Positions 148 to 52,586 of a stretch of 53,943 nucleotides of DNA are shown here, in pieces. The position numbers were made by a program, and so were the translations under genes. Origin of the DNA: a virus (taxonomy: Duplodnaviria > Heunggongvirae > Uroviricota > Caudoviricetes). Location: the IMG/VR virus record IMGVR_UViG_2869947659_000002; one strand, 5' to 3'. The notes under the pieces are model-generated. The model was not told the DNA's origin. It was given only the letters and a program-made list of their open reading frames with translations, and made no database searches. Every line of letters begins with the position of its first letter. Position 1 is the first letter of the stretch.

Positions 148-285
148 CACCACAGGGGGCAGACGGACCATTGAACCATGGCCTCCGGAACAAATAAGGG
201 CAAAAATAACAACCACTATCGAAAGCTCACAAACTAACCGCAGCACGTTCCTGCATACGACGTGTCTGCGGCATAATCCCAATGA

Positions 286-555
286 TTACTCCCTGACAGG
301 ATTTGCAGGCCACTCAATATCAGGTACAGTTGATGTATCAACACGATTCAACAATACCCGATATTTATTCCATGCCTCCAGCAACGATCTTTCTTCCTCC
401 GTTGCGATTTCCAGATCTACAGCATCCTGCAGTGGCGCAATATACTCACTGAATTCCTGGATGTAGAACTGTGTGGTGACGGTCTTCCAGCCATTCGGCT
501 CCTGCTGTATCGAAGCATACCAGGCTATTTCAATATCGCTATGCTGCGGCAGCAT
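286..555 (-). CDS. tail fiber assembly protein fragment (Tfa-like C-terminal segment)
   Basis: C-terminal ~55 aa ([53 protein letters not shown]) closely matches the C-terminus of the Tfa at 1335..1685; N-terminal part unrelated; DNA 238..557 is a near-repeat of 1281..1520. Confidence 0.55.
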
Positions 556-611
556 TTAACCCCTTGTAATTCATCGCCATAATTGATTTAATTCACAAAT
601 AAAACTATAAC

Positions 612-1280
612 ATGGTGAAATCAATGAAAAAAAACACAGATGATGGGGCTAAAATTTACACACCACTTACCCTAAAGCTTTATGACTGGTGGGTTTTGGG
701 AGTATCAAATCGGCTTGCATGGGGATGTCCTACAAAGGAACACCTTCTTCCACACTTTCTGGAACATGTAGGTAACAACCATCTGGATATTGGTGTTGGA
801 ACTGGGTTTTACCTTACTCACGTACCTGAGAGTAGTCTGATATCTTTAATGGATTTGAACGAAGCTAGCCTGAACGCGGCATCTACAAGGGCTGGGGAAT
901 CAAAAATTAAACATAAAATTAGCCATGATGTTTTTGAACCTTATCCCGCGGCGTTACATGGTCAATTTGATTCCATTTCCATGTTTTACCTTCTTCACTG
1001 CCTGCCTGGAAATATATCTACAAAAAGCTGTGTAATACGCAATGCGGCGCAGGCCTTAACTGACGATGGAACTCTATACGGAGCCACAATTCTTGGCGAT
1101 GGAGTTGTGCACAATAGCTTCGGTCAAAAACTGATGGGCATTTACAATCAGAAAGGCATCTTTTCAAACACAAAAGATTCCGAAGAAGGCTTAACACATA
1201 TACTCTCAGAGCATTTCGAGAATGTTAAAACCAAGGTTCAAGGTACTGTAGTAATGTTTTCCGCTTCAGGGAAAAAATAG
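612..1280 (+). CDS. class I SAM-dependent methyltransferase (cargo gene)
   Basis: Motif I-like HLDIGVGTGFYL, acidic post-I residue (LMDLNE), motif II-like FDSISMFYLLHCLP; lower GC than flanking phage genes; start could be ATG 612 or ATG 624. Confidence 0.75.
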   Translation: MVKSMKKNTDDGAKIYTPLTLKLYDWWVLGVSNRLAWGCPTKEHLLPHFLEHVGNNHLDIGVGTGFYLTHVPESSLISLMDLNEASLNAASTRAGESKIKHKISHDVFEPYPAALHGQFDSISMFYLLHCLPGNISTKSCVIRNAAQALTDDGTLYGATILGDGVVHNSFGQKLMGIYNQKGIFSNTKDSEEGLTHILSEHFENVKTKVQGTVVMFSASGKK

Positions 1281-1685: not shown

Positions 1686-1847
1686 GTCATAAACCGTTTT
1701 ACCCCGATGATCCCATCAGTAACAGACAACGGACCTGAAATAGTCCCTCCAGTTGTTGGCAGCGCTCCAATATCTGATGGTGTAGGTTTCTGATGTGAGC
1801 TATACATCGTATAAACAACACCATCGGTAACGCTGGTGGATTTGCCC

Positions 1848-2753
1848 CTATATTTCCAGACATCTGTTATCACTTAACCCATTACAAGCCCGCTGCCGCA
1901 GATATTCCCGTGGCGAGCGATAACCCAGCGCACTATGCGGATGCCATTCGTTATAATGTTCGAACGCCTCTGCAAGGTTCTTTGCTGCCGTTAACCCGTC
2001 TGGTTTGGGCATGATACTGATGTAGTCACGCTTTATCGTTTTCACGAAGCTCTCTGCTATTCCGTTACTCTCCGGACTCCGCACCGCCGTGTTCTTCGGT
2101 TCAAGTCCCAACATCCGGGCGAACTGGCGTGTTTCATTAGCCCGGTAGCATGAACCATTATCCGTCAGCCACTCCACTGGAGACGACGGAAGATCGTTGC
2201 CGAAGCGGCGTTCCACCGCACCCAGCATGACGTCCAGTACTGTTTCACTGTTGAAGCCGCCGGTAGTCACCGCCCAGTGCAGTGCCTCACGATCACAGCA
2301 GTCCAGCGCGAACGTGACACGCAGTCTCTCTCCGTTATCACAGCAGAACTCGAACCCGTCAGAGCACCATCGCTGATTGCTTTCTTTCACGGCCACTCTG
2401 CCTGTATGTGCCCGTTTCGATGGCGGTACAGCAGGTTTTCGCTCAAGCAACAGCGCATTCTGGCGCATGATCCGGTAAACACGTTTGGCATTGATCGCAG
2501 GCATACCATCAAGTTCTGCCTGTCTGCGAAGCAGCGCCCATACCCGACGATAACCATACGTGGGCAGCTCTCCGATAACATGGTGTATACGGAGAAGCAC
2601 ATCCGTATCATCAGTGTGACGACTGAGGCGGCCATCCATCCAGTCATCGGTTCGTCTGAGAATGACGTGCAACTGCGCACGCGACACCCGGAGACAACGG
2701 CTGACTAAGCTTACTCCCCATCCCCGGGCAATAAGGGCGCGTGCGCTATCCAC
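1848..2753 (-). CDS. insD: IS2 transposase OrfB (InsD)
   Basis: 301-aa ORF with IS3-family DDE transposase features; identical to the copy at 46075..46980. Confidence 0.95.
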
Positions 2754-3076
2754 TTTTTTGCCCGTCCATATTCAACGGCTTCTTTGAGGAGTTCATTTTC
2801 CATCGTTTTCTTGCCGAGCAGGCGCTGGAGTTCTTTAATCTGCTTCATGGCGGCAGCAAGTTCAGAGGCAGGAACAACCTGTTCTCCGGCGGCCACAGCA
2901 GTAAGACTTCCTTCCTGGTATTGCTTACGCCAGAGAAATAACTGGCTGGCTGCTACACCATGTTGCCGGGCAACGAGGGAGACCGTCATCCCCGGTTCAA
3001 AGCTCTGCTGAACAATTGCGATCTTTTCCTGTGTGGTACGCCGTCTGCGTTTCTCCGGCCCTAAGACATCAATCAT
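2711..3076 (-). CDS. insC: IS2 OrfA (InsC), HTH protein
   Basis: 121 aa from [18 protein letters not shown]; overlaps insD as expected for a -1 frameshift fusion. Confidence 0.9.
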
Positions 3077-3674
3077 CTGTACTCCAATGACTAGTCTAAA
3101 AACTAGTATTAAGACTATCACTTATTTAAGTGATACTGGTTGTCTGGAGATTCAGGGGGCCAGTCTAGCTGGAAGGCTTACTCGCTGAATATGTTAGCGA
3201 GGTATAAATAGAAACTGACGCATTTGTAGTACAATCCCAATGGATATTTACACTCGTCGCATAATTGCCAATCTCAACGTAAATATCATATATATCGCCG
3301 GATGTGTTGATCCAGGCGAAATTCGTTAATCCGACGGCTGTACGCTTCCACAAAGCTCCGGTAATCCCTTTGGGGTTTCCATTGCCTGCTCGTAGAACCA
3401 GTTCAGATATACCTGCCTGTTGAGGTGCCCCCACGTTAAATCCAGCGCCACCAATCAATGCGATGTAAACGATGGAACTCGCTTGTGGCATGGTAACCGT
3501 TGCCAGTTTGAACCACCCTGCCCCGCCAGAGAAAGAGATCGTTACTGAATTTAAAGTGCCAATATCTTTCGGTGTTAATGTTATATCCGCAGTCAGTGCT
3601 TTCCCGTTAACTTTTCGGTTAGATGGTACCCTGAGGTGTACTGGCAATAGCGGACACTACCATTTGTTCTTTTT

Positions 3675-4493
3675 TTAAGCAGCTATCTGATGATATTTTT
3701 CCCTGAAGGCTGCCGGGGAGATATTCCCCAGACGAGAGTGACGACGCTGACGATTGTAGAAAATCTCAATGTATTCCCGTATTACTGAGATGGCTTCATC
3801 CCGGTTATTAAAACGATAGTGGCTCAGGCTCTCATTTTTCAGCGTTCCCCAGAAGCTTTCCATCGGAGCGTTGTCGTAACAGTGACCTTTACGCGACATT
3901 GATGTTTTCAGACCAGACTGCTCCTGTATGACCCGGTAATCGTATGCGCAGTACTGTGAACCTCGATCAGAGTGGTGGATTAGCCCGGCAGGTGGGCGCT
4001 GGCTCCTGAGCGCCATAAACAGGGCTTTACCTGTCAGCTCTTTTGTCATGCGCTCTCCCATGGCGTAGCCGACAATTTCGCACGTATAAACATCTTTGAT
4101 GCCAGCGAGGTACAACCATCCCTCCTGTGTGGCAACATACGTCAGGTCCGCCACCCAGACCTGATTTGGTGCTGTAGGAGCGAACGTCTGGTTCAGCAGA
4201 TTTGGCGCAACTGGCAGATTGTGGTTCGGGTTCGTAGTCGCTCTGAACTTGCGTTTCTGCTTACAGCGTAGCCTTAGCTCCTTACGAAGACGTGCCAGTC
4301 GGTCACGACCAACGATGATGCCATTCTCTGCCAGCTCCGTCTGGAGCCGCCGGGTTCCATATGTTTCGCGAGTGCGGATATGTGCCACCTTAATCTCCAG
4401 TTTTAGCCGCTCATCACTTTGTTTTCTGTCTGAGGGTTCATGCTGTACCCAGTTGTAATAACCGCTCCTGGATACACCAAATACCTGACACAT
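3675..4493 (-). CDS. IS3-family transposase OrfB (DDE integrase domain)
   Basis: 272-aa ORF; same protein (one residue different at the C-terminus) as the copy at 48769..49587. Confidence 0.9.
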   Translation of the reverse strand: MCQVFGVSRSGYYNWVQHEPSDRKQSDERLKLEIKVAHIRTRETYGTRRLQTELAENGIIVGRDRLARLRKELRLRCKQKRKFRATTNPNHNLPVAPNLLNQTFAPTAPNQVWVADLTYVATQEGWLYLAGIKDVYTCEIVGYAMGERMTKELTGKALFMALRSQRPPAGLIHHSDRGSQYCAYDYRVIQEQSGLKTSMSRKGHCYDNAPMESFWGTLKNESLSHYRFNNRDEAISVIREYIEIFYNRQRRHSRLGNISPAAFREKYHQIAA

Positions 4494-4528
4494 CGCTTCA
4501 ATGGGAAATTGTTGTCGCCATTGTTCGA

Positions 4529-4831
4529 TTAACGCGTATTTTTCAGCGACTCCTGTGCAAAATACGCTGTTGCTTTTTTTAATATATCTCGCTCAAGGCG
4601 AGCTTCATTTAACGCCTTACGCAGTTGCAGAATTTCAGATTCCAGTTCAGCCACCGTGCGGGAACCAGGAGTACCGAGCCCTTTTCTGGCGGCGGTAACC
4701 CATTGTCCTAAAGTGCCTTCAGGAAGGGATAATCGGGAAGCGCCTTCACTGATCGAAAGTTGATTTTCAAGAACCGTTCTGACAGCTTCGGCTTTGAACT
4801 CTTTAGAGTAACGTTGGTTTTTTCTGCTCAT
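4529..4831 (-). CDS. IS3-family OrfA (HTH/leucine zipper)
   Basis: 100-aa ORF MSRKNQRYSKEFKAEAVRTVLENQLSISEGA...; identical to the copy at 48431..48733. Confidence 0.9.
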   Translation of the reverse strand: MSRKNQRYSKEFKAEAVRTVLENQLSISEGASRLSLPEGTLGQWVTAARKGLGTPGSRTVAELESEILQLRKALNEARLERDILKKATAYFAQESLKNTR

Positions 4832-6071
4832 TATTAGCTCCTTCTGATGCCATTCTATTTCAGGAAGGAGTGTCCGTTAAACTCAGGCTACCTCACCCTG
4901 CCATTCGCATTGTCATTCGCTGCTTTAACTGCCTTCGGTGTCGCGGCAAGCGTTTCAGATGTGCTGTTGGTTGCACTGCTGAGCTGTACTATCCCCTTTT
5001 TCGTCGTGCTCGCATCCTCAAGCGCCACGGCGGATGCAATATCCTCTGCCCGTTTTGCCGCTGTCTCGGCGCGCGTTGCCGCGGATTCCGCCGTACTTTT
5101 GCTCTGAGCTGCCGCCGTCACACTGCCAGCTGCCTCTGTCGCCTTCGTGGATGCCGTCGTGGCGCTGCCCTTTGCTGCTGACGCCTGTCTGGTCGCCTCA
5201 TCTTTTGAAGCAGACGCAGATGATGCCGATGACGCCGCCGAACTGGCGGACGATGCGGCAGCCGTTTTTGAGGATTCTGCGCTGGTTTCCGAGGCTTTCG
5301 CGTTCGTTTCGGATGTCTTCGCTGCCTCTTTTGAGGCCGCCGCATCCCGTGCTGAAGTGGCTGCTTCTGACGCTTTCGTGGTCGCGGTGGATGCAGAAGT
5401 GGCTGCTGATTGTTGTGACGCAGCCGCATTCGTTTCTGACGTTTTCGCCGCACCGGCACTGGTAGCCACCGCGCTTTTTGAGGACTCTGCAGCGGCAGCA
5501 CTTTTTGATGCTTCAGTAGCCTTTGTTGATGCCGTTCCTGCGCTGGAAGACGCTGACTGAGCCGACGTCGCGGCCTGCCCGGCTGATGTGCTGGCTGCAC
5601 GTGCTGAGCCTGCAGCATCAGTCGCATGGGTTGCCGCCTCACTGGCAGATATGCTGGCATCGCTGGCTGACTTCTTCGCGGCTGCCGTGTTCTGTGCAAC
5701 CGCGGAGGCGTTACGTGACACCTCTTCCACCATCTGCTCAAAGCGGCGCAGTGCCTCCGGTCGGACATCATCCTCCGTCATGGCACCGAGAAAATCATTC
5801 AGCGTACCTGGTCTGGAACCTTCATAGACGGTAATGGTCCCGGCATGTGAAGGCGGAAAACCTTCAACCAGCAGGGTGACGCTGTACTGGCCATGCTCAA
5901 CATCCATGCTGTAACGTCCGGCTTCATCCGGATTTTCAGAGGCCACCGTGTTCACCACCACCGTGCTGCTGGTTCGTCTGGCCTTCAGCACAATGGTGCA
6001 GTTCTGTACTGGTTTTCCTGTGCCATCTTTAAGCACGCCAGAAATTTTTACTGTCATACTTTTCCACCAAT

Positions 6072-25539: not shown

Positions 25540-26059
25540 CGATCCACCCGCCCACGTTTTCACCGGCCTTAGCTGCAACATTGGAGGCTTTCGCGATTTC
25601 AGTTTTCACCACATCAAGGTGTGATGGTGAAATGTCCGGATATTTACGCTGTAATGTCAACGGCACACGCACAAGTATCCCCGAAATCTCCTGTGCCACA
25701 CGTTGCAGAATGAAGGTAAACAGTTCAGTTTTCAGCACCACTCCGTCTTCACGGGCATTTTTCAGTTCCTGCGCATCTGCCTGCGCTTTTGTGAGCCGGT
25801 AGCGTTCATAGTCAATGGTGCCGGGTTGTAAATCTGACTCCGCTGCCGCACGCAAATCGGCCAGTTCTTTGCGGAGCTTTTCGTTTTCGATATCAGTTTC
25901 CCTCTGCGCATACCACTGAATTGCCATGGCAGTATCAAATACAGATTCAATGCCCTTACTGCCTTTGGAGACGCAAGGGAGCCCCTGAGACTGCCAGCGT
26001 TCAATCGTCCGCGGGTCCACGTTAAAAATTTCGGCAAGCCTCTTTTTATTAACCTTCAT
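25511..26059 (-). CDS. nu1: terminase small subunit Nu1
   Basis: From [28 protein letters not shown]...; lambda Nu1-like HTH and ...[29 protein letters not shown]... Confidence 0.9.
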
Positions 26060-26233
26060 AGAACAACCCATTATCAAATACAAGGCCCGACATGAAAACG
26101 CCAGAAAAAGGCATTTTCGGACACTTTCATGTCGGACATTTATGAATGCAATATTAAAAAAAACAAAAAGTTATATTCGAGAAGTACCGACACGATTTTC
26201 CCTGAAAAATTTTCATAAATAGTGAAAAACCGC

Positions 26234-26245
26234 GAGGTCGCCGCC
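26234..26245. other. cosN cohesive-end site (12-nt lambda-type)
   Basis: Minus strand reads ...GTTACGGGGCGGCGACCTCGCGG..., matching the lambda cos sequence GGGCGGCGACCT just upstream of Nu1. Confidence 0.8.
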
Positions 26246-26469
26246 CCGTAACGATCTGGATCACAGGAAAGGACCCGCCAACGACTTTCGCGTGCAGGCA
26301 TTAAAAATTTTGCAGTTCCATGCCTAGTTGAAACCTCGATTTCTATAACATCCAATTTTGTAAATTTAGATATAGCTCAACTTTTCCCAATGTTTTCAAG
26401 TGTATAAAAACAATTGGCGTTACGCCATAACACTATACTTAGGATAAGTAAAGATTTTAAGGAGTTTTA

Positions 26470-27537
26470 ATGAGTCAACATCAATATTATCCACAGCTGA
26501 AATGGAAGCCTGCTGAATATGAATCTCTGATGCTTTTAGATCAAACTACGCTCTCTGGTTTTACTCCGATCATTACCATTCCAGACATAGACTGGGATTA
26601 TGAAAACGAATGCTACAAGAAGAATTTGAGTTCTTACTTATCTGACTTCGGTATTAACCTTGCGGCATCCTGGAAAGCCAATCGTCCTGTTTTGCTGGAT
26701 GTTAAATATTTAGATAAACATGGTTCGAGCCGCCATCATCCTCTAGATATGTGTATCCAAGATGCTAGAGTAAATGGTAAGGAAATTATCCCTGTTGTTT
26801 CTCCCGCATATTCAACAAACTATATACATGCTGTTCAACGCAACTTAATCAATGGGCTCGCTATATCTATCACCCCCCAGACATGGCACCAATTCACAAG
26901 TCTGGTTAACCACTTAAATATTCATCCTAGTTTAATTGATGTAATCATTGATTTTGGAGATATTCAAAACGCAACTGATAGTTTAAAACAACAAGCATTA
27001 AGCATGGTCAACACATTATCAGGCCAAGCTCCGTGGAGAAACTTGATTTTATCTTCAACCGCATACCCGGCATCACAGGCAGGGATACCGCAACATCAAG
27101 TTCATCATATTCCGCGCCATGAATACGATCTTTGGATGTACGTAGTACAGAATTTTAGCAATGGAAGAACGCCAAGTTTTAGTGATTATCCCACCGCTAG
27201 CTCTACCATTACGAGCGTAGACCCACGCTTCATGTCTCAGTATGTCTCAGTGAGATATTCGAACGATACCTCATGGATCTTTGTAAAAGGTACCGCAGTT
27301 AAAGGAAATGGATGGGGCCAAACTAAAAACTTATGTACTACCCTTGTTAGTTCGCCAGAGTATCAAGTCTTTGGCTCCAAATTTAGTTGGGGGGATGATT
27401 ACATTTACCAAAGATCATTAGGCGCTAACAAATCTGGCGGCTCTAAAGAATGGCGTAAAGTTGCACATACGCACCATATTACGTTAGTCGTGAGACAGCT
27501 TTATTGGTTGGCGCAGACTCAGCCTGCCAAGCCTTAA
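26470..27537 (+). CDS. hypothetical protein (355 aa), cargo gene; candidate component of a two-gene module
   Basis: ATG with AAGGAG RBS 7 nt upstream; AT-richer than phage genes; no motif I can assign; 3' end overlaps the convergent gene 27479..28099 by 59 bp. Confidence 0.7.
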   Translation: MSQHQYYPQLKWKPAEYESLMLLDQTTLSGFTPIITIPDIDWDYENECYKKNLSSYLSDFGINLAASWKANRPVLLDVKYLDKHGSSRHHPLDMCIQDARVNGKEIIPVVSPAYSTNYIHAVQRNLINGLAISITPQTWHQFTSLVNHLNIHPSLIDVIIDFGDIQNATDSLKQQALSMVNTLSGQAPWRNLILSSTAYPASQAGIPQHQVHHIPRHEYDLWMYVVQNFSNGRTPSFSDYPTASSTITSVDPRFMSQYVSVRYSNDTSWIFVKGTAVKGNGWGQTKNLCTTLVSSPEYQVFGSKFSWGDDYIYQRSLGANKSGGSKEWRKVAHTHHITLVVRQLYWLAQTQPAKP

Positions 27538-28099
27538 CTTTCCAGCCTACGCGTTTCTTTAAGGCTGTTCTGACTTCAGGCCTGAGATTCGCTATTGGAA
27601 TATTTTCCGCAATAATATTCCATAACTCAAATCGGGGCTTGCTTTTGATTCCTTTGGAATAGCCCCATCGTTCAAGTACGTCGATACATTCATCTTTCCA
27701 AAGCAATTGAGCGAGCATCAATGTGTCATGGTTTCGATTAAGCTTTTCTCCACGCATGTGCTTTATAAGAATGGCGCCTTTTGGCCCAACAGAAACCGTT
27801 TTAACGCCCCACCAACCTGGGATTAACTTTAATGCTCCCTCAAGGTGTTTCTCAGCTACGACAAGAGTAACCTTGTCCATTACAGAAGAATAATGCTTGA
27901 TTTGAAGAGGCAAACGCTCCAAAGAGTCATATTCACTTTTGAGCTCGTACCCGTGTATAACACCATTTATTACAGCAATGTCTGCTCTACTGGCGCCAAG
28001 GGATATGGAAAATTCATCGACCACAAGGCAGTCTGGATCTAAATGCGATTCTTTCAAAAGCTTATGATGCACCGCGAACCTAACATCTTGATCTTTCAT
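27479..28099 (-). CDS. hypothetical protein (206 aa) with PD-(D/E)xK-like nuclease motif
   Basis: ATG with AAGGAG RBS; segment SRADIAVINGVIHGYELKSEYD fits the D...(E)xK restriction-endonuclease-fold signature; sits at the lambda bor position. Confidence 0.7.
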   Translation of the reverse strand: MKDQDVRFAVHHKLLKESHLDPDCLVVDEFSISLGASRADIAVINGVIHGYELKSEYDSLERLPLQIKHYSSVMDKVTLVVAEKHLEGALKLIPGWWGVKTVSVGPKGAILIKHMRGEKLNRNHDTLMLAQLLWKDECIDVLERWGYSKGIKSKPRFELWNIIAENIPIANLRPEVRTALKKRVGWKVKAWQAESAPTNKAVSRLT

Positions 28100-28448
28100 G
28101 ACTTCTCCTTACTCCCTCCGTTATTGAATTATAGCGCACTGCATTTTACTGCATTTGAGAGATTTGACCACTTCAATCACAAAATGCTTATCTGCAGCAA
28201 CAAGATTCATAGCCATACGACTATGGTGATTACCTTTTGTCTGGAAAAATGACCATTCCACGAAGATCAGATAGGTCTATAGAATCTTGGTTTGTCATAG
28301 CGTTCGTCTTACTTTGAGATGAACCTTTGCTGCATAGGAGATCAGCCCGTCAAGGCTCACCAGCACTAACTGACTACTCAAAGGCTCATTCCAAAGGGTT
28401 TGGTTCGACGTGGTTGAGTGCGCTGCGGTGCGCGGTGAAATACCTGTA

Positions 28449-28480
28449 CAAAAATGCCCCGCATCTGCGAGGCATTTTCC
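28449..28480. terminator. bidirectional hairpin terminator downstream of Rz
   Basis: AAAATGCC-12 nt loop-GGCATTTT stem with A/T tracts on both sides. Confidence 0.5.
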
Positions 28481-28515
28481 TGAAAGTCACGTATTAAATT
28501 TCAGTGAAATTAAAA

Positions 28516-28989
28516 TTATTTTAAGCACTGCGTCCTGATGTACTCCTGCAGGTAGTTGACCTGAGCGGTTAACTTGTCGATTCCACTTCGGAGACGGTAA
28601 TAATTGAGTTCAGCATCTGCTGTAAGTCTTGGGCTTTCTCCATCGCCCATGCTGCTGGCTCCGGTCGTTGACTTTGCACAGGTGGCGGCGACTTGCAGGC
28701 GCTTACGCCCAGCAGAAACATCAGCACGAAGACTTTCGATAGTCGCGTTAGCATCAGCAAGCTCCTTTGTGTATCTGGCGTCGAGTTCTGCTACATCACG
28801 CTGACGCATCTGCATGTCAGTAATTGCCACGTTCGCCAGCTTCAGTTCTCTGGCATTTTTGTCGCGCTGGGCTTTGTAGGTAATGGCGTTATCGCGGTAA
28901 TGATTAACAGCCCATGACAGGCAGACGATGGTGCAGATAACCAGAGTATAAATAATCGCTGCGACTCTGCTCACTGAGCTATCCCCCAA
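28516..28989 (-). CDS. Rz: i-spanin Rz
   Basis: 157 aa with N-terminal TM, coiled-coil; immediately downstream of the lysozyme gene. Confidence 0.85.
28569..28760 (-). CDS. Rz1: o-spanin Rz1 (lipoprotein embedded in Rz, +1 frame)
   Basis: 63-aa ORF inside Rz with lipobox-like LLGVSAC and Pro-rich [13 protein letters not shown]. Confidence 0.7.
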
Positions 28990-30244: not shown

Positions 30245-32101
30245 TTATGATGATGCTGGTGCATTTATCTCCAGCACCAGACTTTCTATCTCAACGCCAT
30301 ACGCTGCATTTTTGGTAATATCCGTCAGCGTCAGCGCATTCAGCCCCAGTGTCAGACTGTCTTTTATGACCTGGAATGCCGGGCCAGCCACTCCATTCAG
30401 TTTCGGAGTAACCGTGGCACTGCCGGCGGTGAACACCAGCTCCAGCGTCTGCCAGTCGTTACTGTAATTCCCGAACTCGCCCAACTTTGTGTTTCCTGCT
30501 TTCCTGTGATGCATCAGATTCAGTTTGCCGTCTGTGGTCTGGGTGAAGAACGACATCAGGAACGGGTTACCAGTCCCGGTCATCGCCACGACGTCAGGTA
30601 ACGCTACATCGGTATACAGATAAATTCCCAGACCGAACTGGTTGTTGGTCAGTGCGCCTGACAGTCGAAACTTACAGCTCAGTCTGCCACCCCGTGTCAG
30701 CAGGGAGACTGCGTCATCCACCGGATGCATCAGGGACCAGGTTTTATTGCTCTGCTTGGTAACCTTAAACACACCATCTTCCAGCGCAACACTGCCGCCG
30801 GTGATGGTCCAGCCCTGCGCAGCAGCCTCTCCGGCTGTCGGCAGCAGGGAGACTGTACGAACGGATGTGTCACCATCAGACGGCCCCGATGGAGTGTCGC
30901 CGCCGGGCGAGGGTTTGATTTCCGGTGCCTTACCACTAATGAAGGCTAAGGTGCGACCGGCTACGTTCAGAATAGCAGTTGCCATACGATCGGGAATAAT
31001 GCCACGACGCGCCCATGAGCTGAAATGCGTCGGGCGATTTGATGATACCCAGTTTTTGTTCGTTCGGGATGCCGAACCGTAATAACCAGACCCGGCAATA
31101 TCAGGATCTTCTGACGGGTTGTTTGTCGGTGTATTAACTCCGCTACCATCGGTCATAAAGGGAACAAAATAAATCTGCTGGGATTCTTTACCTTTATATG
31201 CACCATATACCACTTCATATTGCGTACCGTGTTCTTGTTTCCACGCGTATGTCGTGTCGCCACAAATCCAGGGGACTGATGCCGGACTTCCACCGTGACA
31301 CTGCGCCGCCAGCCCGGCAAGGTCAGCACGGAACTGCTGTACCATTGCAAGAAATGCTGCTGGCTGCTGGGCGTAACTGGCATTCGTCATATCGAATTCC
31401 CCCTGCATCCAGCATATCGCCAGCAAAACGTTTTTCGGGTTTTTCTGCAATGCTGCCTTCGTGCGGAAAAGCAGATCCTGATATAACGGCTTACCCACTC
31501 CCCAGCGAGCCGAATCCTGACTGGCCCCCGTGGACTCGCTGAATGTCCCCTCCGTGCCCTGGGTGAATGCCGAACCACCACGACAGCATGGTACCAGCAG
31601 GATCCCCGCGTTATTAGGGATATACGGAAGCAGTTTTTTGGCAATATGTAAGCCCTGTCCGACACAGCCGTACTGCCCTTTGCTCAGGTCAGCCCGGGGA
31701 TGGTTAATCGTACTCATATCCTGAACATCATGCAGACAATGGTCAGCAGGAATGATGTCGTTAAATACGCATACTTCACCACCGGGAGTCACTGTGTTAC
31801 GACGGGCCAGTTGCTTAATGCGCGGATGGGGCGCATCGTATGAATCCGGCAGCGGAAGCCCTTCACCGTAAGCCATGGCATTGGACTGCCCGGCCAGTAC
31901 GATGACGTAGTACCAATCCGGCTCAGTTGCACCACTGACCACCACATCACCTTCTGCTGCAATCGCCTGCATCAGGGTATAAGGGGTTATGGCCACCGGA
32001 CTACCAAACGGCTGCCAGCCCTCCTTCAGTTTTTGTGTCAGTCGTTTCGCAAGGTCTGACGGCGATACCGCCCTGACCACGTCATAGTGTTTAAATGCCA
32101 T
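30245..32101 (-). CDS. prophage 9-O-acetyl-sialate esterase (NanS-p-like, SGNH/SASA domain)
   Basis: 618 aa; N-terminal small domain, then YVIVLAGQSNAMAYGE (GQSN esterase motif); strong RBS GGGAGGA; same slot as nanS-p downstream of stx in Stx phages. Confidence 0.85.
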   Translation of the reverse strand: MAFKHYDVVRAVSPSDLAKRLTQKLKEGWQPFGSPVAITPYTLMQAIAAEGDVVVSGATEPDWYYVIVLAGQSNAMAYGEGLPLPDSYDAPHPRIKQLARRNTVTPGGEVCVFNDIIPADHCLHDVQDMSTINHPRADLSKGQYGCVGQGLHIAKKLLPYIPNNAGILLVPCCRGGSAFTQGTEGTFSESTGASQDSARWGVGKPLYQDLLFRTKAALQKNPKNVLLAICWMQGEFDMTNASYAQQPAAFLAMVQQFRADLAGLAAQCHGGSPASVPWICGDTTYAWKQEHGTQYEVVYGAYKGKESQQIYFVPFMTDGSGVNTPTNNPSEDPDIAGSGYYGSASRTNKNWVSSNRPTHFSSWARRGIIPDRMATAILNVAGRTLAFISGKAPEIKPSPGGDTPSGPSDGDTSVRTVSLLPTAGEAAAQGWTITGGSVALEDGVFKVTKQSNKTWSLMHPVDDAVSLLTRGGRLSCKFRLSGALTNNQFGLGIYLYTDVALPDVVAMTGTGNPFLMSFFTQTTDGKLNLMHHRKAGNTKLGEFGNYSNDWQTLELVFTAGSATVTPKLNGVAGPAFQVIKDSLTLGLNALTLTDITKNAAYGVEIESLVLEINAPASS

Positions 32102-33366: not shown

Positions 33367-34425
33367 TCATCCGTTCTGGCTGACTAAATCCTGTACTTCC
33401 CGAACCGTCTGCTCAAAACGTTCAGTCTCCAGCTCAACGCCAATTGCACGACGCCCGAGCGCCAGTGCCGCTTTCACTGTCGAACCCGACCCCATGAAAA
33501 AATCTGCAATCAGGTCACCCGGACGACTGCTAGCGCTGATTATCTGCTGCAGCATTTCTGCCGGTTTTTCGCACGGATGTTTCCCGGGATAGAACTGCAC
33601 CGGTTTATGCGTCCACACATCGGTATACGGCACCTGCACCGTCACGCCAAAATACCGCCGCAGATGTTTATATTCACTCAGCAGCTCCGCATACTGCCGG
33701 TTCAGTGAGGTATACGTATCCACCAGCTGGTGGTGGAGCTTTTCCAGTTCACCACGCCGATGCTTCTCTTCTGCCACCCGGGCAAACAGCGCCTGTAATT
33801 TCAGATAATCGCTTTCATTCGGCAACTGCCACTGACTGGCACTGAACCAGTGCGACACCATGTTTTTCTTTCCTGTGGCATCTGCAATCTGTTTTGCCGT
33901 TATCCCCAGGGCAGCTCGCGCATCACGAAAGTAAGAAATCAGCGGGGCCATCACATGCTGTTTCAGTGCACTGCCCTTCACCGCATACCCGGCATCTTTC
34001 GGACGATACGGCCCCTGATAATGTTCCGCGAACAGAATGCGCTCTGTGGCGGGGAAATACGCCCGCAGGCTTTCCTTGTTGCATCCGTTCCAGCGTCCGG
34101 ACGGCTTCGCCCAGATAATATGGTTCAGCACACTGAAGCGTTCACGCATCATGATTTCGATATCAGATGCCAGGCGATGACCACAGAACAGGTAAAGACT
34201 TCCGGCAGGTTTCAGCACCCGCCAGAACTGCGCCAGACACTGGTCCAGCCACTTCAGGTAATCATCGTCGCCCTTCCACTGGTTATCCCAGCCCTCAGGC
34301 TTCACTTTAAAGTACGGCGGGTCCGTGACTATCAGGTCAACAGAATTTTCGGGTAACGACCGGATAAATTCCAGGCAGTCGGCGTTGATTAACTCACAAC
34401 TGGATATTTTTACAGTATTAAGCAT
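33367..34425 (-). CDS. DNA methyltransferase (N6-adenine/N4-cytosine type, beta class), no adjacent restriction enzyme
   Basis: 352 aa; motif IV DPPY (IVTDPPYF) near the N-terminus and motif I FFMGSGST near the C-terminus. Confidence 0.85.
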   Translation of the reverse strand: MLNTVKISSCELINADCLEFIRSLPENSVDLIVTDPPYFKVKPEGWDNQWKGDDDYLKWLDQCLAQFWRVLKPAGSLYLFCGHRLASDIEIMMRERFSVLNHIIWAKPSGRWNGCNKESLRAYFPATERILFAEHYQGPYRPKDAGYAVKGSALKQHVMAPLISYFRDARAALGITAKQIADATGKKNMVSHWFSASQWQLPNESDYLKLQALFARVAEEKHRRGELEKLHHQLVDTYTSLNRQYAELLSEYKHLRRYFGVTVQVPYTDVWTHKPVQFYPGKHPCEKPAEMLQQIISASSRPGDLIADFFMGSGSTVKAALALGRRAIGVELETERFEQTVREVQDLVSQNG

Positions 34426-45543: not shown

Positions 45544-45751
45544 AAAGTGAATTTTGTGATGTGGTGAATGCGGCTGAGCGCACGCGGAACAGTTAAAACC
45601 AAAAACAGTGTTATGGGTGGATTCTCTGTATCCGGCGTTAATTGTTAACTGGTTAACGTCTAGACTGGCCCCCTGAATCTCCAGACAACCAGTATCACTT
45701 AAATAAGTGATAGTCTTAATACTAGTTTTTAGACTAGTCATTGGAGTACAG

Positions 45752-46117
45752 ATGATTGATGTCTTAGGGCCGGAGAAACGCAGACGGCGTACCACACAGG
45801 AAAAGATCGCAATTGTTCAGCAGAGCTTTGAACCGGGGATGACGGTCTCCCTCGTTGCCCGGCAACATGGTGTAGCAGCCAGCCAGTTATTTCTCTGGCG
45901 TAAGCAATACCAGGAAGGAAGTCTTACTGCTGTGGCCGCCGGAGAACAGGTTGTTCCTGCCTCTGAACTTGCTGCCGCCATGAAGCAGATTAAAGAACTC
46001 CAGCGCCTGCTCGGCAAGAAAACGATGGAAAATGAACTCCTCAAAGAAGCCGTTGAATATGGACGGGCAAAAAAGTGGATAGCGCACGCGCCCTTATTGC
46101 CCGGGGATGGGGAGTAA
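45752..46117 (+). CDS. insC: IS2 OrfA (InsC)
   Basis: Identical to copy 1 InsC. Confidence 0.9.
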
Positions 46118-46980
46118 GCTTAGTCAGCCGTTGTCTCCGGGTGTCGCGTGCGCAGTTGCACGTCATTCTCAGACGAACCGATGACTGGATGGATGGCCGC
46201 CTCAGTCGTCACACTGATGATACGGATGTGCTTCTCCGTATACACCATGTTATCGGAGAGCTGCCCACGTATGGTTATCGTCGGGTATGGGCGCTGCTTC
46301 GCAGACAGGCAGAACTTGATGGTATGCCTGCGATCAATGCCAAACGTGTTTACCGGATCATGCGCCAGAATGCGCTGTTGCTTGAGCGAAAACCTGCTGT
46401 ACCGCCATCGAAACGGGCACATACAGGCAGAGTGGCCGTGAAAGAAAGCAATCAGCGATGGTGCTCTGACGGGTTCGAGTTCTGCTGTGATAACGGAGAG
46501 AGACTGCGTGTCACGTTCGCGCTGGACTGCTGTGATCGTGAGGCACTGCACTGGGCGGTGACTACCGGCGGCTTCAACAGTGAAACAGTACTGGACGTCA
46601 TGCTGGGTGCGGTGGAACGCCGCTTCGGCAACGATCTTCCGTCGTCTCCAGTGGAGTGGCTGACGGATAATGGTTCATGCTACCGGGCTAATGAAACACG
46701 CCAGTTCGCCCGGATGTTGGGACTTGAACCGAAGAACACGGCGGTGCGGAGTCCGGAGAGTAACGGAATAGCAGAGAGCTTCGTGAAAACGATAAAGCGT
46801 GACTACATCAGTATCATGCCCAAACCAGACGGGTTAACGGCAGCAAAGAACCTTGCAGAGGCGTTCGAGCATTATAACGAATGGCATCCGCATAGTGCGC
46901 TGGGTTATCGCTCGCCACGGGAATATCTGCGGCAGCGGGCTTGTAATGGGTTAAGTGATAACAGATGTCTGGAAATATAG
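46075..46980 (+). CDS. insD: IS2 transposase OrfB (InsD)
   Basis: Identical to copy 1 InsD. Confidence 0.95.
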
Positions 46981-47048
46981 GGGCAAATCCAACGTCACCT
47001 GGAGGCACCAGGCACCGCATCACAAAATTCATTGTTGAGGACGCGATA

Positions 47049-47425: not shown

Positions 47426-48430
47426 AACAGTTCCGTAATAAATATCCGGTTTCATTCTTATATGCCAGCAATGGCAGGGATTTGTTCATCCTTAAATCTG
47501 TCATGAGGTTAAAACAAATGAGTAAAGTCTTTATTTGCGCCGCTATTCCTGACGAACTGGCAACAAGGGAAGAAGGCGCTGTGGCTGTAGCCACAGCCAT
47601 TGAAGCTGGCGACGAACGCCGTGCTCGAGCAAAATTTCACTGGCAATTCCTGGAACATTATCCGGCTGCTCAGGACTGCGCTTATAAATTTATTGTCTGC
47701 GAGGATAAACCTGGCATACCCCGCCCTGCCCTCGATTCATGGGATGCTGAATATATGCAGGAAAACCGCTGGGATGAGGATTCTGCTTCTTTTGTCCCGG
47801 TTGAGACTGAATCCGATCTGATGAACGTCACTTTTGACAAGCTGGCCCCTGAAGTACAGAACGCTCTCATGGTTAAGTTCGACACATGTGAAAACATCAC
47901 CGTTGATATGGTTATTAGCGCACAGGAATTGTTGCAGGAAGACATGGCAACATTCGACGGCCATATCGTTGAAGCGTTGATGAAAATGCCAGAAGTTAAC
48001 GCCATGTATCCGGAGCTTAAGTTGCATGCCATTGGGTGGGTTAAGCATAAATGTATTCCTGGTGCTAAATGGCCCGAAATTCAGGCAGAGATGCGCATCT
48101 GGAAAAAACGTCGTGAAGGTGAACGCAAGGAAACCGGAAAATACACGTCTGTTGTTGATCTTGCCCGCGCCAGAGCCAATCAACAGTACACTGAAAATTC
48201 AACAGGAAAAATCAGCCCGGTCATTGCTGCCATTCATCGCGAATACAAGCAGACATGGAAAACACTGGATGACGAACTGGCCTACGCTCTCTGGCCTGGT
48301 GATGTGGATGCCGGAAACATTGACGGCAGCATCCATCGCTGGGCAAAAAATGAAGTTATCGACAACTGAGGTAGCCTGAGTTTAACGGACACTCCTTCCT
48401 GAAATAGAATGGCATCAGAAGGAGCTAATA

Positions 48431-48733
48431 ATGAGCAGAAAAAACCAACGTTACTCTAAAGAGTTCAAAGCCGAAGCTGTCAGAACGGTTCTTGAAAATC
48501 AACTTTCGATCAGTGAAGGCGCTTCCCGATTATCCCTTCCTGAAGGCACTTTAGGACAATGGGTTACCGCCGCCAGAAAAGGGCTCGGTACTCCTGGTTC
48601 CCGCACGGTGGCTGAACTGGAATCTGAAATTCTGCAACTGCGTAAGGCGTTAAATGAAGCTCGCCTTGAGCGAGATATATTAAAAAAAGCAACAGCGTAT
48701 TTTGCACAGGAGTCGCTGAAAAATACGCGTTAA
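48431..48733 (+). CDS. IS3-family OrfA
   Basis: Identical to 4529..4831. Confidence 0.9.
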   Translation: MSRKNQRYSKEFKAEAVRTVLENQLSISEGASRLSLPEGTLGQWVTAARKGLGTPGSRTVAELESEILQLRKALNEARLERDILKKATAYFAQESLKNTR

Positions 48734-48768
48734 TCGAACAATGGCGACAACAATTTCCCATTGAAGCG

Positions 48769-49587
48769 ATGTGTCAGGTATTTGGTGTATCCAGGAGCGG
48801 TTATTACAACTGGGTACAGCATGAACCCTCAGACAGAAAACAAAGTGATGAGCGGCTAAAACTGGAGATTAAGGTGGCACATATCCGCACTCGCGAAACA
48901 TATGGAACCCGGCGGCTCCAGACGGAGCTGGCAGAGAATGGCATCATCGTTGGTCGTGACCGACTGGCACGTCTTCGTAAGGAGCTAAGGCTACGCTGTA
49001 AGCAGAAACGCAAGTTCAGAGCGACTACGAACCCGAACCACAATCTGCCAGTTGCGCCAAATCTGCTGAACCAGACGTTCGCTCCTACAGCACCAAATCA
49101 GGTCTGGGTGGCGGACCTGACGTATGTTGCCACACAGGAGGGATGGTTGTACCTCGCTGGCATCAAAGATGTTTATACGTGCGAAATTGTCGGCTACGCC
49201 ATGGGAGAGCGCATGACAAAAGAGCTGACAGGTAAAGCCCTGTTTATGGCGCTCAGGAGCCAGCGCCCACCTGCCGGGCTAATCCACCACTCTGATCGAG
49301 GTTCACAGTACTGCGCATACGATTACCGGGTCATACAGGAGCAGTCTGGTCTGAAAACATCAATGTCGCGTAAAGGTCACTGTTACGACAACGCTCCGAT
49401 GGAAAGCTTCTGGGGAACGCTGAAAAATGAGAGCCTGAGCCACTATCGTTTTAATAACCGGGATGAAGCCATCTCAGTAATACGGGAATACATTGAGATT
49501 TTCTACAATCGTCAGCGTCGTCACTCTCGTCTGGGGAATATCTCCCCGGCAGCCTTCAGGGAAAAATATCATCAGATGGCTGCTTAA
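48769..49587 (+). CDS. IS3-family transposase OrfB
   Basis: Same as 3675..4493 apart from one C-terminal residue. Confidence 0.9.
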   Translation: MCQVFGVSRSGYYNWVQHEPSDRKQSDERLKLEIKVAHIRTRETYGTRRLQTELAENGIIVGRDRLARLRKELRLRCKQKRKFRATTNPNHNLPVAPNLLNQTFAPTAPNQVWVADLTYVATQEGWLYLAGIKDVYTCEIVGYAMGERMTKELTGKALFMALRSQRPPAGLIHHSDRGSQYCAYDYRVIQEQSGLKTSMSRKGHCYDNAPMESFWGTLKNESLSHYRFNNRDEAISVIREYIEIFYNRQRRHSRLGNISPAAFREKYHQMAA

Positions 49588-50170
49588 AAAAAGAACAAAT
49601 GGTAGTGTCCGCTATTGCCAGTACACCTCAAACGACCGCGAAGACTGGAAGCGTATCTCGGCATCAATGCGCAAACAGCCTGATGTCCTTCGCTACGACC
49701 GCCAGACTATTTTTGGCCTTGTCCGTGAACGTCCGATCGACATTCACAAAGACCCTGTGGCACTGAACAAATACATTACTGAATACCTGACTACAAAGGG
49801 CGTGTTTGAAGATGAAGGAAGAAATCAGAGCGCAACTGATACTCTCTCGTCGCCAGTACCAGAAACTGATGCAGTGGAAACGGCAATTCCGGACAACGAA
49901 AAAACCGAATGCAAAGTGGAAGTCGAACCATCTGTAGAGCGTGAGGGGCCGTTCTACTTCCTCTTCACCGACAAGGATGGCGAAAAATACAGTCGCGCAA
50001 ACAAACTTTCTGGTCTGGATAAGGCGCTGGCTGCCGGGGCAACTGAAATCACGAAAGAAGAATATTTTGCCCGCAAAAACGGCACATACACAGGTTCACA
50101 ACAAAATGAGGTAGCCTGAGTTTAACGGACACTCCTTCCTGAAATAGAATGGCATCAGAAGGAGCTAATA

Positions 50171-50458
50171 ATGAGCAGAAAAAACCAACGTTACTCTAAA
50201 GAGTTCAAAGCCGAAGCTGTCAGAACGGTTCTTGAAAATCAACTTTCGATCAGTGAAGGCGCTTCCCGATTATCCCTTCCTGAAGGCACTTTAGGACAAT
50301 GGGTTACCGCCGCCAGAAAAGGGCTCGGTACTCCTGGTTCCCGCACGGTGGCTGAACTGGAATCTGAAATTCTGCAACTGCGTAAGGCGTTAAATGAAGC
50401 TCGCCTTGAGCGAGATATATTAAAAAAGCAACAGCGTATTTTGCACAGGAGTCGCTGA
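50171..50458 (+). pseudogene. IS3-family orfA, frameshifted
   Basis: Frame lost after ...ERDILKK at an A7-to-A6 contraction relative to copies 1 and 2. Confidence 0.8.
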
Positions 50459-50507
50459 AAAATACGCGTTAATCGAACAATGGCGACAACAATTTCCCAT
50501 TGAAGCG

Positions 50508-51344
50508 ATGTGTCAGGTATTTGGTGTATCCAGGAGCGGTTATTACAACTGGGTACAGCATGAACCCTCAGACAGAAAACAAAGTGATGAGCGGCTAAAA
50601 CTGGAGATTAAGGTGGCACATATCCGCACTCGCGAAACATATGGAACCCGGCGGCTCCAGACGGAGCTGGCAGAGAATGGCATCATCGTTGGTCGTGACC
50701 GACTGGCACGTCTTCGTAAGGAGCTAAGGCTACGCTGTAAGCAGAAACGCAAGTTCAGAGCGACTACGAACCCGAACCACAATCTGCCAGTTGCGCCAAA
50801 TCTGCTGAACCAGACGTTCGCTCCTACAGCACCAAATCAGGTCTGGGTGGCGGACCTGACGTATGTTGCCACACAGGAGGAATGGTTGTACCTCGCTGGC
50901 ATCAAAGATGTTTATACGTGCGAAATTGTCGGCTACGCCATGGGAGAGCGCATGACAAAAGAGCTGACAGGTAAAGCCCTGTTTATGGCGCTCAGGAGCC
51001 AGCGCCCACCTGCCGGGCTAATCCACCACTCTGATCGAGGTTCACAGTACTGCGCATACGATTACCGGGTCATACAGGAGCAGTCTGGTCTGAAAACATC
51101 AATGTCGCGTAAAGGTCACTGTTACGACAACGCTCCGATGGAAAGCTTCTGGGGAACGCTGAAAAATGAGAGCCTGAGCCACTATCGTTTTAATAACCGG
51201 GATGAAGCCATCTCAGTAATACGGGAATACATTGAGATTTTCTACAATCGTCAGCGTCGTCACTCTCGTCTGGGGAATATCTCCCCGGCAGCCTTCAGGG
51301 AAAAATATCATCAGATGGCTGCTCAAAAAAAGAACAAATGGTAG
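50508..51344 (+). CDS. IS3-family transposase OrfB with stop-loss extension (6 extra residues)
   Basis: Identical to copy 2 OrfB except one Gly-to-Glu change and read-through ...[11 protein letters not shown]. Confidence 0.8.
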
Positions 51345-52586
51345 TGTCCGCTATTGCCAGTACACCTCAAAATACTGATGCATCTGACACGACCGCACAA
51401 CCAGACCTGGTAAAAGTTACCGCTGACGAAGTAAACAAAATTATGCAGGCAGCCAGTATCAGCCAGCCTGACGCTAATAAGTTGCTCGCTGCATCACGTG
51501 GTGAATTTGTTGAAGGGATTAGCGACCCGAATGATCCGAAATGGGTGAAGGGGATTGAAACCCGCGATTCTGTGCACCAGAACCAGTCAGAAACGGAACA
51601 GTACGACCAAAAAGCGGAACAAAACAGCCAAAATGCGTTACAAAACGAGCCAGAAACGAAACAACCTGAACCAGTCGTGCAACAGGAAGAGGAAAAAGTT
51701 TGTACCGCATGCAATCAGACTGGTGGTGGTAACTGCCCTGATTGTGGCGCAGTGATGGGTGACGCAACCTACCAGGAGACATTCAACGAAGAAAGCCAGG
51801 ATGAAGCCCGGGAAAAAGATCCAGAGGAAATAGAAAATGCCGGACTCCCGAACAAGGAGTGCACCGAAGGCGATCAACATGCCAATGACAATAATGAAAT
51901 AGGCGAGACAGCAAATCCCTTAATTAAGGTGAACGGTCATCGTAAAAGCACATCCACCAGCAGGTTGTGGCACCATCTGATGATTGACCTTGAAACCATG
52001 GGAAAAAATCCTGATGCCCCGATTATCTCAATAGATGCAATATTTTTCGATCCGCAAACCGGAGATATGGGACCGGAATTTAGTAAGACTATCGATCTGG
52101 AAACTGCTGGCGGAGTCATTGATCGTGACGTCATTAAAAGGTGGCTGAAGCAATCACGTGAAGCGCAGTCTGCCATTATGACCGATGAAATCCCGTTAGA
52201 TGATGCACTGTTACAATTGCGGGAATTTATCGACGAAAACTCCGGTGAATTTTTTGTTCAGGTCTGGGGAAATGGAGCCAACTTCGAAAACACGATTTTG
52301 CGCCGTTCATACGAACGGCAGGGGATCCCCTGCCCATGGCGTTACTACAACGATCGCGATGTACGCACAATCGTTGAGCTGGGGAAAGCCATAGACTTCG
52401 ATGCCAGAACGGCTATTCCATTCGAAGGTGAGCGCCATAATGCACTTGATGACGCCCGTTACCAGGCAAAATACGTTTCAGTTATCTGGCAAAAACTGAT
52501 CCCGAATCAGGCTGATTTTTAATGTTCAACCCCGGTCGTTGCCCACCAGCTATAGTGGCGGCGACCATGATTAGCGAACGACGCTC

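Follow-up and report, generated by a model that had tools for sequence, protein, structure and literature searches.

Known defence systems with β and cII homologs

The gop, β, and cII genes of the satellite P4 form a validated phage defence system. Rousset et al. (2022) cloned the three genes and found protection against λ and P1 (PMC9122126). The construct assayed for protection in the literature is solely pFD238, which carries all three P4 genes; the authors explained its effect as abortive infection, with gop and β as a toxin-antitoxin pair, and their HHpred table listed MmcB-like proteins, NucS, and DpnII for cII (PMC9122126). Silas et al. (2023) reported cell death through gop-β-cII with orf184, an accessory gene of a phage, as the trigger. 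A second system, PD-λ-2, combines a β homolog with a HigB-like protein and an Xre-peptidase (Vassallo et al. 2022; PMC9519451). This β homolog, PD-λ-2C, is needed for defence and is dispensable for toxin neutralisation (PMC9519451). A 2024 survey still placed gop-β-cII among genes of unknown function. In the P4 reference genome, gop occupies 247-648 (+), β occupies 651-1718 (+, 355 amino acids (aa)), and cII occupies 1746-2540 (-, 264 aa), adjoining cos. The present analysis concerns a gene pair at 26470-28099 of the IMG/VR virus record IMGVR_UViG_2869947659_000002, a stretch of 53,943 nt that is referred to here as the window and whose host element is a λ-like E. coli prophage. From sequence comparison, it is reasonably probable that this module is a horizontally acquired two-gene relative of P4 β and cII that serves in prophage defence, with cII as the effector and β as its control.

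The β/cII gene pair of the prophage

A first-pass annotation of the window had described two convergent, 3'-overlapping genes of 355 and 206 aa. The list of open reading frames (ORFs) contains both exactly as described, at 26470-27537 (+) and 27479-28099 (-), with 59 nt in common. They are genuine genes and not chance ORFs, since homologs match with E values as low as 1e-242 and 3e-131 and the pair has been conserved in different phyla. As the same annotation had pointed out, each gene is preceded by the ribosome-binding site AAGGAG. Read from the sequence, it lies at 26459-26464 (+) for β and at 28105-28110 (-; CTCCTT on the + strand) for cII, in both cases 5 nt before the ATG. A weak σ70-like promoter candidate (TGGTCA-16-TAAAAT, nine of 12 consensus matches) was found upstream of cII at 28143-28170 (-), and a consensus scan of the region gave a count of promoter-like sites that was not above the shuffled expectation. 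The guanine-cytosine (GC) content is 0.410 in β, 0.433 in cII, and 0.405 over 26100-28300, against 0.552 in the left flank and 0.521 in the right flank, so the earlier description of the pair as AT-richer than its flanks was accurate. The GC3 values are 0.37 for β and 0.41 for cII, compared with 0.56 for the large terminase gene. The β/cII module is foreign in composition and is horizontally acquired cargo.

The 355-aa protein is a full-length member of the Pfam family PF14350 (Beta_protein), which is named after P4 β. The match scored 190.6 bits (cutoff 27; E = 7.2e-56) and covered profile positions 1-342 of 342; the earlier statement that this protein has no assignable motif has therefore been replaced by a family assignment. 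The PADLOC profile 'PD-Lambda-2_C' matched residues 141-344 (6e-32), the PADLOC profile 'beta' also matched (7e-10), and BLASTP against P4 β gave 21% identity (E = 3e-7). A match to NCBIfam ndhI (E = 0.069, far below its cutoff) was rejected as noise. A profile search of PDB sequences with β gave no meaningful match, and the only matches in BFVD were the Gordonia ortholog and some weak, generic barrels. In the predicted structure, β folds as an eight-fold (βα)8 TIM barrel with a C-terminal helical extension, and its nearest functionally annotated folds include GDPD and PLD-type phosphodiesterases. Across 14 sequences ranging from P4 to actinophages, residues Y6, P8, E16, L20, P33, D77, V109, P200, D239, G281, W328, and H336 are invariant, and D161 and Y263 are conserved in at least 90%. 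D77 and D239 are located at the C-terminal ends of predicted barrel strands. The conserved acidic and histidine residues resemble an active site or a site for ligand binding.

The 206-aa protein belongs to the sce7726 family (NF033832; 184.1 bits, cutoff 70, E = 2.3e-54), and its close homologs are all precomputed as members of PF26915 (Phage_P4_cII). It matched the PADLOC profile 'cll' at 4e-31 and P4 cII at 27% identity (BLASTP, E = 3e-19). The profile searches of both proteins that the first-pass annotation had proposed as a check returned Pfam, NCBIfam, and PADLOC matches, and the families matched are components of validated defence systems. An exhaustive profile search collected cII relatives in 3,606 clusters (50% identity; E <= 1e-10), and most of the best 150 relatives listed are 190-210 aa long. 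A profile search of PDB sequences with cII gave no meaningful match, and thus no solved structure related by sequence.

The core of cII has the restriction-endonuclease-like αβββαβ fold. The segment SRADIAVINGVIHGYELKSEYD, in which a PD-(D/E)xK signature had been suspected, is present in cII and contains D40, E52, and K54; all of the 36 family members compared have these three residues, whose codons lie at 27980-27982, 27944-27946, and 27938-27940 (-), respectively. E29, R38, S55, D58, and Q66 are likewise invariant among these members, and Y70 is conserved in at least 90%; the window protein has E29, D40, E52, K54, Q66, and Y70. A motif set of the form E / D / ExK / QxxxY characterises RecB/Cas4-type nucleases. 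Judged by its sequence motifs, cII looks like a PD-(D/E)xK family nuclease with an intact active site, and the motif assignment of the first-pass annotation was correct. The nuclease domain comprises approximately residues 1-120 (27740-28099, -) and is followed at approximately residues 126-182 (27554-27724, -) by a SAP-like helical region that is predicted to bind DNA, with a SAP motif candidate at about residues 126-160.

The overlap of the two genes, at 27479-27537, codes for the C-terminal 19 residues of β and, on the opposite strand, for cII residues 188-206, which form a disordered tail (pLDDT <50). Folding of the overlap region revealed no unusual RNA structure (z = 0.38), a promoter and terminator scan placed no terminator between β and cII, and an Rfam scan of 25900-28700 matched no family. 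Two-gene homologs overlap by 4-89 nt, bar one with a 4-nt gap. The terminator-less overlap is kept from enterobacterial prophages to a Gordonia phage (loci L003-L010 and L094-L102) and is absent from the three-gene loci of P4 and of Pasteurella phage Pmp11. It can be hypothesized that the overlap may couple the expression of β and cII by antisense pairing or transcriptional interference.

Proposed roles of β and cII

If the module serves in defence, the prophage would express the pair, and superinfection exclusion or abortive infection would shield the host against other phages. In this process, cII would be the effector that cuts DNA, on which it would be held by its SAP-like region. β would at first keep cII inactive; it would then either detect a phage cue or catalyse a reaction by which cII is licensed. 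The assignment of cII as effector and β as controlling partner is based on the stronger conservation of cII, which exceeds that of β in 70 of 78 pairwise comparisons with a median gap of 14 identity points, and on the protective, non-toxic character of β in P4. A controlling role of β is further suggested by its homologs, which operate with unrelated toxins and, in PD-λ-2, are needed for the defence step.

The main rival explanation reverses these roles. The effector would then be the TIM-barrel protein β, whose target as a phosphodiesterase or hydrolase, for instance, could be a nucleotide, a cofactor, or an envelope component, and cII would be a DNA-binding sensor or regulator recognising incoming or replicating phage DNA. 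The conserved residues of β are in keeping with this arrangement, as E16, D77, D239, and H336 are invariant, D161 is nearly so, and their partial placement at strand ends is typical of an active site. The phosphodiesterases among the nearest annotated folds of β, the need for PD-λ-2C in defence itself (PMC9519451), and the predicted DNA-binding region of cII point in the same direction. Role reversal appears unlikely, and the reading with cII as effector is retained here.

The accessory-gene slot between cos and the lysis cassette

On the left, the module is flanked by the large and small terminase genes, and on the right by Rz, lysozyme, and holin genes, which begin at 28516. The λ-type cosN GGGCGGCGACCT was found as an exact unique match at 26235-26246 (-) and represents the right end of the packaged genome. 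The longer cos string GGGCGGCGACCTCGCGG is also an exact unique match, at 26230-26246 (-), where 0 are expected by chance. Accessory genes vary in the slot at 26285-28700 (GC 0.405), which separates cos from the lysis cassette and contains here the β/cII cassette and a short remnant akin to the P22 rha region. In the sibling prophages L011-L013, which are approximately 98% identical to the window in DNA over the small-terminase/cos segment, homology ends at 26278-26284 and resumes within Rz at 28695-28705. The contents of the slot differ among these siblings and consist of Iss (a bor homolog) with a TonB-family protein, of DUF6979 with hypothetical proteins, or of an IS66 insertion. The slot between cos and the lysis genes is a hotspot that varies among siblings. 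The first-pass annotation had placed the pair where λ carries bor, at a prophage accessory-gene hotspot, and the exact cosN match, the iss gene of the siblings, and the variable slot contents agree with this placement. The β/cII pair therefore represents one more documented cargo type for the cos-proximal bor/iss slot of λ-like prophages.

Within the same slot, the segment 28295-28500, which lies between the cII start and Rz, shares approximately 86% identity with the rha region of Salmonella phages of the P22/BTP1 type and looks like a remnant of earlier cargo at the hotspot. A 71-aa ORF at 26140-26355 (-), which spans cosN and has neither a ribosome-binding site nor homolog support, is almost certainly spurious.

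Absence of gop and distribution of the two-gene form

In the gop-β-cII system, gop lies immediately upstream of β on the same strand; this arrangement was not found here. A tblastn search of the whole window with P4 gop gave a best match of E = 0.018 over 39 aa, straddling a gene boundary in the lysis cassette, and among the small ORFs in 26050-26480 and 28090-28530, none has a transmembrane (TM)-like segment. The distance from cosN to the β start is 224 bp, which leaves too little room for gop, and the small terminase gene adjoins. The gop gene is absent from the window.

All contexts covered by the analysis show a free-standing convergent cassette of two genes, and the lack of gop is therefore more than a local loss. 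The two-gene form was also found in other viral genomes. In 80 IMG/VR loci collected with the cII profile, about half of which are redundant, being nearly identical either to the window or to a single further E. coli lineage, a β ORF is present in 78 and is both adjacent and convergent in 77. A gop-like ORF was found in none of these 80 loci, nor was a recurrent third gene beside the pair. In two of them, β is frameshifted or split by an insertion sequence (IS). The pair was found in Proteobacteria, in phages of Actinobacteria, and on plasmids, at prophage accessory slots and in a restriction-modification (R-M) island. In Providencia, a PDDEXK_4 gene and an MvaI/BcnI R-M system adjoin the gop-less pair in an integrase island. 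In Vibrio, the pair is located in integrase-adjacent prophages, in a Yersinia prophage within the lysis cassette, and in an HK97-like prophage of Cronobacter with HNH/TerS on one side and the lysis genes on the other, and in Acinetobacter and Pasteurella prophages it adjoins a CI-like repressor. The pair is also present on a Burkholderia contig and at a non-phage chromosomal site in a JGI metagenome-assembled genome, and annotated copies are found on plasmids of Rhodococcus, Sinorhizobium, and E. coli. In Escherichia phage Rac-SA53 (KU052037), the genes annotated 'beta' and 'CII phage-like protein' overlap by 41 nt. In Gordonia phage Powerball, gp33 (β, Pfam 5e-37) is convergent with gp32, annotated as 'exonuclease', with an 89-nt overlap, and profile comparison assigned gp32 to the cII family (probability 100%, E = 2.6e-53). 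The module itself is carried by 126 of 5,426 complete E. coli genomes, in which the copies listed are approximately 99.9% identical and intact, and it was found at the DNA level in 0 of 50,697 phage records. RefSeq labels this exact module 'beta family protein' and 'sce7726 family protein'. The first-pass annotation had supposed that uncharacterised paired families might match; paired families do match, but the module is not an unknown pair, as it already has names in RefSeq.

The three-gene architecture was seen in P4 and Pmp11, both of which have a long cII and no 3' overlap. The gop-less form looks like the predominant architecture across phyla, with the three-gene forms as a minority branch. 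At the gop position of Pmp11 (L103:2145-4437), a 131-aa protein with two TM segments and a coiled coil was observed, whose similarity to gop is not significant (E = 0.17); the same locus encodes β and a cII of 260 aa with 35% identity to its P4 counterpart. This suggests that the small membrane proteins at the gop position are analogous recruits or have diverged beyond recognition. In one viral locus, L053:5001-6810 (IMGVR_UViG_2684622845_000002), a cII homolog is followed by co-directional Ser/Thr kinase-like and PP2C phosphatase-like genes, which replace β and may be an alternative partner set for the cII nuclease.

The absence of gop raises the possibility that the pair is an inert, degenerate remnant of gop-β-cII, as the validated system has three genes. 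This explanation is very improbable. Both ORFs are intact and have strong ribosome-binding sites, the near-identical E. coli copies occur in 126 genomes, and the gop-less form predominates across phyla, with a cII of about 190-210 aa dominating more than 3,600 clusters. It was rejected on account of this conservation of the gop-less form across phyla.

The sites at which the pair occurs also bear on a toxin-antitoxin-like function, in which the module would be an addiction or stabilisation unit that retains the prophage or island and has no anti-phage role. P4 gop and β were first described as a toxin-antidote pair, the genes are carried by plasmids and integrative islands, and some copies have decayed, with β frameshifted or IS-split. 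However, related systems with these components protect against phages, and the pair is placed as defence cargo typically is, at moron hotspots of prophages and next to R-M genes or CI repressors. The convergent, separately transcribed layout is also unlike that of classical type II toxin-antitoxin operons. An addiction function is distinctly unlikely.

A service to the phage itself is quite improbable. The pair would then act, for example, in lysogeny control, as the name 'cII' would suggest, or, going by the 'exonuclease' label in Gordonia phages, in the recombination or processing of the phage's DNA. This reading draws on the historical gene name, on the homolog labels 'regulatory protein' and 'exonuclease', and on the copies that adjoin an immunity region. 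Nevertheless, the genes are non-essential in P4, and the pair is missing from otherwise near-identical sibling prophages and is found at non-phage chromosomal sites and on plasmids. Its position also varies among phages, from the lysis cassette and the cos end to the vicinity of integrase and the immunity region.

Weight of the evidence for defence

The first-pass annotation had proposed a candidate defence system. This proposal is upheld in so far as the PADLOC profiles 'beta', 'PD-Lambda-2_C', and 'cll' represent components of validated systems, but gop is absent, and defence by the two genes is what we infer from these relationships. Several points weigh against the defence reading. The validated P4 system includes gop, which is treated as the toxin in the P4 literature, and the identity of the window proteins to those of P4 is only 21% (β) and 27% (cII). 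The literature search yielded no experiment on a gop-less pair and no biochemical activity for either protein; the sce7726 and β families were encountered there only in genome-annotation mentions. A pair lacking gop may accordingly lack defence or work differently. The promoter predictions are weak, and we infer the division of labour between sensor and effector. In view of its conserved pocket-like residue set, β could itself be a catalytic effector.

A wider proposal can be made tentatively, with a chance that we consider modest at best. Under this proposal, β/cII and not gop/β would be the autonomous, ancient core, present in Proteobacteria, Actinobacteria, and their phages and plasmids. 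β would be a genuine TIM-barrel enzyme or a ligand sensor, and its conserved pocket would license the SAP-tethered nuclease. Gop and the HigB/Xre-peptidase proteins would be bolt-on effectors that some lineages have gained, and the overlap would act, by antisense or transcriptional interference, as a switch of the β:cII ratio. If this is true, the description of the P4 system as a 'gop-β toxin-antitoxin' is incomplete, and if the gop-β-cII rules of PADLOC and DefenseFinder require gop, these tools would miss most of the family. If the pair defends alone, the mechanism with a gop toxin and a β antitoxin is not the whole story for P4, and the conserved machinery consists of a TIM-barrel protein and a PD-(D/E)xK nuclease.

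It is already known that both families have names, that RefSeq annotates the genes, that homologs belong to validated defence systems, and that cII has a nuclease fold. Relative to the literature searched, the new elements are the cross-phylum predominance of the gop-less pair, the TIM barrel of β with its conserved pocket-like residue set, and the conservation of the overlap. For E. coli genomics, the finding is otherwise routine because the genes are already named in RefSeq. The module is a sound lead for defence-system research and not a surprise.

Other features of the prophage

Two IS-sized repeat families were observed in the window. A 1,332-bp element of IS2 size is present in two inverted copies (1837-3168 and 45660-46991) that are 99.9% identical. 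An element of approximately 1,265 bp is present in three copies (3632-4895, 48364-49632, and 50104-51371) with 99.7-99.9% identity, one of which is inverted relative to the other two. Both families flank the prophage on each side in inverted orientation and could give rise to inversion or rearrangement.

Between the holin gene and the late-regulatory region, 30245-32101 (-) encodes a 618-aa protein with DUF1737, SASA (sialate O-acetylesterase-like), and DUF6645 domains, which is another prophage accessory gene. An N6/N4 DNA methyltransferase is encoded at 33367-34425 (-) (Pfam 2.8e-43; PADLOC MTase_II 1e-164), and no adjoining restriction gene was noticed. It is likely a phage orphan methylase for anti-restriction.

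Comparison with known systems

The pair has its nearest validated counterpart in the P4 system, listed in DefenseFinder as 'Rst_gop_beta_cll'. Both loci have adjacent, homologous β and cII genes in convergent orientation (β→ ←cII), both are cos-adjacent and lie at a hotspot of a mobile element, and the two β proteins are each 355 aa long. However, P4 has gop, a protein with two TM segments that is regarded as a toxin, and the window does not. P4 cII has 264 aa, whereas the cII of the window has 206 aa and is without the P4 C-terminal region. In P4, a 27-nt gap with a terminator separates β from cII, whereas in the window the two genes overlap by 59 nt. The carriers also differ, P4 being a satellite and the host element of the window a λ-like prophage, and the protein identities are low, as given above.

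The relationship to PD-λ-2 is confined to its third component, as PD-λ-2C is a β-family protein like the β of the window. The HigB-like and Xre-peptidase fusion partners, whose genes lie upstream of the β homolog in PD-λ-2, are not found beside the β of the window, where the neighbours are terminase/cos on one side and cII/Rz on the other. MmcB-like and RecB/Cas4-type PD-(D/E)xK nucleases (for example PDB 3dnx, Can2, and NucS) resemble cII in core fold and in the catalytic E…D…ExK…QxxxY pattern; unlike these proteins, cII ends in a SAP-like region of its own and is coupled to an obligatory β partner.

The pairs of Rac-SA53 and Powerball are gop-less and convergent with a 3' overlap and belong to the accessory genes of temperate phages, as in the window. 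They represent different lineages, with β 32% and 28% identical and cII 54% and 43% identical to the window proteins in Rac-SA53 and Powerball, respectively. Their positions are also unlike that in the window, being the hok/Q region in Rac-SA53 and the vicinity of integrase and HicAB in Powerball.

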